Shown one piece after another: positions 13,024 to 14,096 of a stretch of 33,339 nucleotides of DNA. How positions within the stretch are numbered: position 1 is the stretch's first letter; each line of letters starts with the position of its first letter. The position numbers and the translations under genes are program-made. The notes below the pieces were generated by a model. The model worked only from the letters and a program-made list of their open reading frames with translations, ran no database searches and had not been told where the DNA came from. The DNA is from a virus (lineage: Duplodnaviria; Heunggongvirae; Uroviricota; Caudoviricetes): the IMG/VR virus record IMGVR_UViG_2671180294_000014; one strand, 5' to 3'.

Positions 13024-14096
13024 ATGCGCCAGGAAACCCGCTTTAAATTTAATGCTTACCTGTCCCGTGTTGCCGAGCTGAACGGCATCGACGCCGGTGA
13101 TGTGTCGAAAAAATTCACCGTTGAACCGTCGGTCACCCAGACCCTGATGAACACCATGCAGGAGTCCTCTGACTTTCTGACCCGCATCAACATTGTGCCG
13201 GTCAGTGAAATGAAAGGGGAAAAAATTGGCATCGGTGTCACCGGCTCCATCGCCAGCACCACCGACACCGCCGGTGGCACCGAGCGTCAGCCGAAGGACT
13301 TCTCGAAGCTGGCGTCAAACAAGTACGAATGCGACCAGGTTAACTTCGATTTTTATATCCGCTACAAAACGCTTGACCTGTGGGCGCGTTATCAGGATTT
13401 CCAGCTCCGTATCCGTAACGCCATTATCAAACGCCAGTCCCTTGATTTCATCATGGCCGGTTTTAACGGCGTGAAGCGTGCCGAAACCTCTGACCGCAAC
13501 AGTAATCCGATGCTGCAGGATGTGGCGGTCGGCTGGCTGCAGAAATACCGAATGAAGCCCCGGCGCGCGTGATGAGCAAGGTCACTGACGAGGAAGGCCG
13601 CACCACCTCTGAGGTTATCCGCGTGGGTAAGGGCGGTGATTATGTAAGCCTCGATGCACTGGTGATGGATGCGACCAACAACCTGATTGAACCTTGGTAT
13701 CAGGAAGACCCTGACCTTGTGGTGATTGTGGGGCGTCAGCTACTGGCGGACAAGTATTTCCCTATCGTCAACAAGGAGCAGGATAACAGCGAGATGCTGG
13801 CCGCTGACGTCATCATCAGCCAGAAACGCATCGGTAACCTGCCGGCGGTACGCGTCCCGTACTTCCCGGCGGATGCGATGCTCATCACGAAGCTGGAAAA
13901 CCTGTCCATCTACTACATGGATGACAGCCATCGCCGCGTGATTGTGGAAAACCCGAAACTCGACCGCGTGGAGAACTACGAGTCAATGAACATTGATTAC
14001 GTGGTGGAGGACTACGCCGCCGGTTGTCTGGTGGAAAAAATTAAGGTCGGTGATTTCTCCACACCGGCTAAAGCGACCGCAGAGCCGGGAGCGTAA
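13024..14096 (+). pseudogene. N: major capsid protein gene, split by an apparent 1-nt deletion near 13548-13552
   Basis: Two ORFs, 13024..13572 (frame 1) and 13569..14096 (frame 3), together cover recalled P2 gpN. The first ends ...WLQKYRMKPRRA*; reading one A-run base longer would give ...WLQKYRNEAPARVMSKV, matching P2. Could be a real inactivating mutation or a draft-assembly indel. Confidence 0.6.

Follow-up and report, generated by a model that had tools for sequence, protein, structure and literature searches.

A one-base deletion in the major capsid gene of a P2-like prophage of Shigella sonnei, most likely a recently inactivated phage at a very early stage of decay

Introduction

The capsids of P2 and P4 have a single kind of shell protein, gpN, and established P2 genetics makes gpN an essential protein. 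Shigella genomes are rich in pseudogenes and in prophages disrupted by IS elements, and prophages inactivated by frameshift are commonplace. The structure of gpN has been solved (7jw1), and in the published domain map residues 183-224, the "sir loop", lead from the end of alpha4 in the P-domain to the A-domain, with Met184 being a sir site that contacts Sid (PMC7552001). For S. sonnei 75/02, a PHAST table reports a 31-kb "intact" region with Salmonella phage SEN34 as its suggested homologue; this region is similar in size to the prophage described below and may be the same element. We found no description in the literature of that prophage, of its frameshift or of its inducibility.

Here we analyse a stretch of 33,339 nt (IMG/VR virus record IMGVR_UViG_2671180294_000014), called the window throughout, in which an earlier note made from the sequence alone had observed a broken capsid gene N. 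That note offered two alternatives, a real frameshift and an assembly error, and leaned towards error since the same assembly has an N-gap. We compare the window with annotated relatives, follow the broken allele through public assemblies, and ask what remains of the phage.

Results

A P2-like prophage next to fieF

A P2-like (Peduovirus) prophage occupies positions 1..32202 of the window, from int (1-1011, minus strand) to ogr (about 31984-32202), and is collinear with the prophage of E. coli EC6622 and with phage PhiR44_1. The host flank that marks the integration site is the cation-efflux gene fieF (32438..33339, plus strand), assigned from the sequence; its equivalents in E. coli CP065611.1 (locus L014) and in DAZPJJ010000001 (L018) match PF01545 (Cation_efflux). 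The genes stand in the canonical Peduovirus order, with int, C, cox, B and A followed by Q, P, O, N, M, L, the lysis and tail genes, and then D and ogr; the order O-N-M-L is that of P2, and transcription of Q and P, next to them, is divergent, again as in P2. Cargo is present in both the TO (tin/old) and the Z/fun hotspots.

Along the annotated PhiR44_1 and the EC6622 prophage, to which the window is 94-97.5% identical, there is no frame-breaking indel other than the one in N, and the remaining essential genes have uninterrupted frames: C, cox, B, A, Q, P, O, M, L, X, the lysis cassette, R, S, V, W, J, I, H, G, FI, FII, E/E', U and D. The remaining indels relative to EC6622 over 8914-32292 are intergenic ones, an in-frame indel of 12 nt in lysA, and the N-gap. 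The natural slippery site of E/E', TTTTTTG, is present at 27622.

The immunity region (1051-1753) encodes a 97-aa HTH repressor on the minus strand and a 95-aa Cox-like protein; it does not align with PhiR44_1 or with the EC6622 prophage, and both of its flanks are 95-97% identical to them. This pattern suggests that the window carries an immunity of a different type on the same backbone. The tail-fibre gene H (20803-23121) contains a 132-nt (44-aa) tandem repeat at 21343-21804, present in 3.5 copies that are 89% matching, with one unit fewer in the S. sonnei assembly L003 (728 aa, compared with 772 aa in the window). The difference in H is either a collapse of the repeat in short-read assembly or a real variation in the copy number of the fibre-shaft unit.

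Gene N has lost one isolated base

Gene N of the window lies in two pieces in different frames, as is evident from both the ORF list and the sequence. The 5' fragment (13024..13572, plus strand) encodes 182 aa ending in ...LQKYRMKPRRA, where residues 1-176 are wild type and MKPRRA (177-182) is an out-of-frame tail closed by the TGA at 13570-13572; this product matches positions 1-170 of the 327 in PF05125 (E=2.5e-73). The 3' fragment (13569/13572-14096, plus strand), in the -1 frame, encodes 175 or 174 aa and matches PF05125 over 178-327 (E=5.5e-69). Its 174 aa from Met184 onwards match the wild type; its frame opens no earlier than 13506, and its ATG overlaps the stop of the 5' fragment (TGATG).

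Pairwise and multi-locus comparison on the plus strand places the lesion between G13550 and A13551, where the window lacks one base relative to EC6622 and the surrounding 131 nt are 100% identical (reference ACCGCAATG, window ACCG-AATG). The lost base is a C, the third position of codon 176 (CGC, Arg, which becomes CG-). Thus the ORFs and this alignment agree with the earlier note that the capsid frame stops at 13570-13572 and that the rest continues in another frame; the note's proposal of a base lost within a short run was mistaken, since the C is isolated, with a G before it and an A after it, and lies outside any homopolymer. Its further proposal, that one added base would restore the match to P2 gpN, proved right: the restored protein of 357 aa aligns end to end with gpN (7jw1, residues 1-357; E=1.1e-236) and differs from it by four substitutions.

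All of the N homologues listed in 97 phage records (95 phage homologues) and 1,540 E. coli records are 1,074 nt long, and the gene in the window is 1,073 nt. Codon 176 is CGC in all relatives; two further assemblies that carry the allele across the site (L003 and L019) have G only, and every other locus examined has GC. The two fragments jointly span the PF05125 profile, but the single ORF of about 357 codons for a complete HK97 fold is broken after codon 176, and the window's N is a pseudogene of a P2-family major capsid protein and not a functional member of that family. The deletion is genuine and is no error of sequencing or assembly: the same allele is found in hundreds of independent S. 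sonnei assemblies.

The deletion is derived and recent

Three sister prophages, which are 99.9-99.97% identical to the window in DNA over 15-21 kb, retain the C, and their N protein is identical to the restored N protein of the window. E. coli CP065611.1 differs from the window by 6 SNPs in 21 kb, and a UFZL01 record, whose UniProt entries stand under E. coli, differs by 3 SNPs in 21 kb together with many assembly indels; in both of these N is intact, the integration site is the same fieF site, and the cargo of both hotspots is the same. S. boydii JARKNQ01 differs by 5 SNPs in 15 kb and has the same late region with N intact, but its int-to-cargo half has been lost to IS elements: in JARKNQ010000001 (locus L008, 1-5860), IS630-type and IS3-type elements adjoining ilvBN take the place of that half. 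The S. boydii copy is an independent and different route of inactivation for the same phage in a second Shigella lineage.

The exact restored 357-aa N protein is found on 66 contigs. The outgroup states make the deletion derived and put it towards the end of the changes along the S. sonnei branch; it is recent as well, because near-identical prophages (3-6 SNPs per 15-21 kb) keep N intact. Between the window and CP065611.1 (L006/L014), about 0.03% of the prophage sites differ, whereas the figure for the neighbouring gene fieF is 8 sites in about 900. Since the prophage differs so much less than fieF, the intact phage would have spread horizontally later than the divergence of the hosts, and these sequence differences point to recent movement of the intact phage between E. 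coli and Shigella. A phage without capsids cannot transfer itself; the deletion therefore presumably post-dates integration in the S. sonnei lineage.

Consequences for gpN

The break was placed on gpN by means of the solved structure and the published domain map. The 182-aa product retains the N-arm, the E-loop, the spine helix and alpha4, and it is without the sir loop, the whole A-domain and the C-terminal strands of the P-domain. Because the A-domain and these P-domain strands are missing, the product should be unable to form an HK97-fold shell, and since gpN is the sole shell protein, the prophage is predicted to make no heads and to give no help to P4-type satellites. The earlier suggestion that the prophage cannot build capsids is thus well founded as a prediction from the missing domains.

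The cargo is intact, and domestication is considered unlikely

The TO hotspot carries cargo over 5880..8777, consisting of three intact genes annotated from Pfam and PADLOC: a Dcm-type C5 cytosine methyltransferase (5880-6905, plus strand; exact protein on 754 contigs), a HEPN MAE_28990 protein (6935-7615, minus strand; 678 contigs) and a DUF262/GmrSD_N protein (7617-8777, minus strand; 798 contigs). The methylase is divergent in orientation from the DUF262 and HEPN pair. In the Z/fun hotspot there is an intact 472-aa ORF (23767..25185, minus strand) with no Pfam or PADLOC match. At least 1,000 contigs, among them E. coli and Shigella contigs, carry its exact protein, and the gene is a widespread uncharacterised moron. 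That the cargo is still carried, as the earlier note had stated, holds for every one of these ORFs, by Pfam, by PADLOC and by the occurrence of the exact proteins on many contigs.

The DUF262 protein matches PADLOC NsnA (Menshen) with E=1.7e-54 and PD-T4-2_A with E=2.5e-35, and neither an NsnB nor an NsnC partner accompanies it; the HEPN protein has matches to PF18735 and PF18737, and to no PADLOC model at E<=1e-3. PD-T4-2 is an anti-phage system that was reportedly described by Vassallo et al. in 2022. It is composed of a DUF262 protein paired with a PF18735-HEPN protein (PMC10952713). The two-gene pair in the window, DUF262 and HEPN (PF18735), resembles PD-T4-2 in this respect; unlike PD-T4-2, its DUF262 protein has Menshen NsnA as best match and its HEPN protein is without a PADLOC model, and the adjacent Dcm-type methylase is part of neither PD-T4-2 nor Menshen as described.

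With every cargo ORF and all of the tail and lysis genes intact, the element might be regarded as domesticated, the capsid knockout having been tolerated or favoured for the sake of the cargo, or the prophage having been kept as a headless-tail tailocin. The cargo proteins are indeed unchanged on about 680 to more than 1,000 contigs, and a tailocin of this origin would have a precedent in the R-type pyocins, which descend from P2-like tails. However, the head genes Q, P, O, M and L are just as intact, so that retained and dispensable parts are indistinguishable; the compared S. sonnei copies are 100% identical, which leaves no divergence from which selection could be measured; and no tailocin-specific change is visible. 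In addition, P2-type prophages are, to our knowledge, not SOS-inducible, which would limit the release of tails. The sequences thus speak neither for nor against selective retention, and we consider domestication unlikely. It would be a long shot that the element is already a young tailocin, giving headless contractile tails and lysis and kept together with the cargo, or, less likely again, that a two-piece gpN reinitiated at TGATG still assembles; if true, the former would be a tailocin of natural origin, separated from its phage ancestor by a single mutation and retained with anti-phage cargo.

The deleted allele recurs in independent assemblies

Alleles were resolved by exact-sequence look-ups, as the homologue search with the restored protein covers representatives of 90%-identity clusters only. 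The exact 182-aa product is present on 396 public contigs and in 540 index blocks, and the exact 174-aa C-terminal product on 377 public contigs (NCBI and Logan in both cases, Logan being assemblies built straight from sequencing runs); these contig counts are not frequencies (the window's gpP allele, for example, is on 717 contigs) and cannot be converted into them, because pipelines that flag pseudogenes emit no protein. The contigs with the exact N fragments bear Shigella sonnei names, including "Shigella sonnei 53G", and the longest of them is chromosome-sized at 4,988,504 bp.

At the DNA level, the window is 100% identical to the S. sonnei contig CXAP01000002 over 3024-21569, with the sole differences in the tail-fibre repeat, and 100% identical to IMG/VR UViG_2558860170_000011 over 11767-19923, deletion site included; it is also identical to DAZPJJ010000001 (L018) over 20260-33339, the edge of the gap excepted. 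Among IMG/VR contigs, the wild-type 30-mer across the site is found in at least 120 and the deleted 29-mer in 1. None of 5,426 complete RefSeq E. coli genomes has the deleted N allele (the best match is 99.7% identical, and all matches are 1,074 nt). In scans, the deleted 29-mer was absent from the GTDB species representatives, which is no surprise if GTDB subsumes S. sonnei under E. coli, and from JGI metagenome contigs. One record labelled S. sonnei, CSQ12471.1, holds the exact intact 357-aa N protein; the deletion may be polymorphic within S. sonnei, or this record may be mislabelled, and its locus is not among the 24 contigs that we read.

If the missing base were a sequencing or assembly error, the true sequence would keep the C, N would be intact and the prophage fully functional. 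The intact N protein in that one record would fit such an error, as would the draft state of the window's assembly, where both an N-gap and a miscalled poly-G contig end lie in gpT. Against this, the identical allele occurs on the 396 contigs and in the 540 blocks from differing sources, which include Logan, a chromosome-sized contig and an IMG genome. Indel errors concentrate in homopolymers, and the lost base is outside any. E. coli and S. boydii assemblies that share the flanking 130 nt retain the C, so that a systematic error driven by sequence context is unlikely as well; moreover, 16 kb separate the site from the gap artefact, and everywhere else other assemblies match the window at 100%. 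An error is therefore very unlikely, and of the two alternatives in the earlier note the real frameshift stands and the assembly error falls, with the allele on 396 and 377 contigs and the assemblies identical across the site.

The N-gap that had tipped the earlier reading towards error does exist, inside the tape-measure gene T. It consists of 13 N at 29601-29613 standing for 9 nt, within an artefact at 29595..29613 (plus strand) in which 29595 and 29598 are miscalled as G (T in sister assemblies) and create a GGGGGGG run. Since gpT is an intact 815-aa ORF in both L018 and L014, the gap seems to be an artefact of a contig end or of poly-G, and the break that it makes in the frame of T is false. 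We reject a tie between this gap and the frameshift in N: the gap is an unrelated local artefact, and the sister assembly is identical bar the gap edge.

Many genes of the sister record UFZL01000002 (L007/L015) are fragmented by single-base indels, of which there are dozens, most of them in short runs. This is the picture that true assembly-error frameshifts present, in contrast to the window with its one clean deletion.

A capsid made from two fragments is highly improbable

A capsid that is split and still functional would arise if translation terminated at the UGA and reinitiated at the AUG of Met184, with the two polypeptides co-assembling. The TGATG stop-start overlap, followed by a second fragment that is wild type from Met184, would allow this, and the chain is interrupted where alpha4 ends and the sir loop starts, which is a domain boundary; the family profile still recognises both pieces, and the two polypeptides jointly hold all of gpN except residues 177-183. 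Yet there is no Shine-Dalgarno-like sequence ahead of the ATG, where the upstream sequence is AAGCCCCGGCGCGCG, and the TGATG overlap is coincidental, because it is no more than an out-of-frame reading of the wild-type sequence for Val183-Met184. The A-domain is inserted within the P-domain, so that two chains would have to rebuild an interleaved fold, and we know of no report of an HK97-fold capsid rebuilt from two interleaved chains. Furthermore, the seven residues beside Met184, the Sid-contacting site, are lost or replaced. Some ribosomes could reinitiate at the Met184 ATG and give the C-terminal 174 aa, which could allow fragment complementation; as an account of a working capsid, the split protein is highly improbable.

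Programmed recoding, in which -1 ribosomal frameshifting or transcriptional slippage would restore full-length gpN, has a negligible probability and is rejected, for although the shift needed is -1, the type that P2 uses in E/E', and the two N frames overlap across 13506-13572, there is no X XXY YYZ heptamer in any register of this overlap (the longest run is CCCC), the downstream RNA forms no stable structure (z = +1.64; 192 of 200 shuffles fold at least as well), and the allele is restricted to a single clone, N being one ORF in more than 1,500 relatives, so that there is no evolutionary signature of recoding.

Discussion

We put at roughly 90% the probability that the window records a genuine 1-nt deletion that arose after a functional P2-like phage had lysogenised the fieF site of S. 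sonnei and that has since been inherited vertically. In this sequence of events, a fully functional P2-like phage would have lysogenised the fieF site of the S. sonnei lineage; the third base of the Arg176 codon in the gpN gene would then have been deleted, bringing in a stop six codons on; and, in the absence of capsids, the prophage would have been trapped in the chromosome and passed on vertically. The remaining genes, namely those for immunity, replication, the other head proteins, tail, lysis and the hotspot cargo, are still open, presumably because there has been too little time for further decay. The lesion itself is that of a defective prophage, in that the essential gene N is inactivated by a frameshift seen on 396 contigs of independent sources. 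The element is most likely an ordinary, very early-stage defective prophage that was recently inactivated.

Such a finding will not surprise a specialist; its use is practical. At about 32 kb, the element could pass as intact in automated calls, and the one missing base predicts that it is immobile. Accordingly, the prophage belongs neither among the active phages nor among the P4 helpers, and the cargo should not be assumed to be spreading through it in S. sonnei at present. It also offers a clean and datable first step of prophage decay, as its intact ancestor, 99.97% identical, is still in circulation in E. coli, and the deletion in N could be used as a simple lineage marker.

In comparison with known systems, the window departs from P2 at gpN, where its frame is broken after codon 176 and no full-length protein is encoded. 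It resembles cryptic prophages in general in having one inactivating lesion in an essential morphogenesis gene, clonal vertical inheritance and retained accessory genes; what sets it apart from them is that its decay has barely begun, N being the one gene with a lesion and all the others open.
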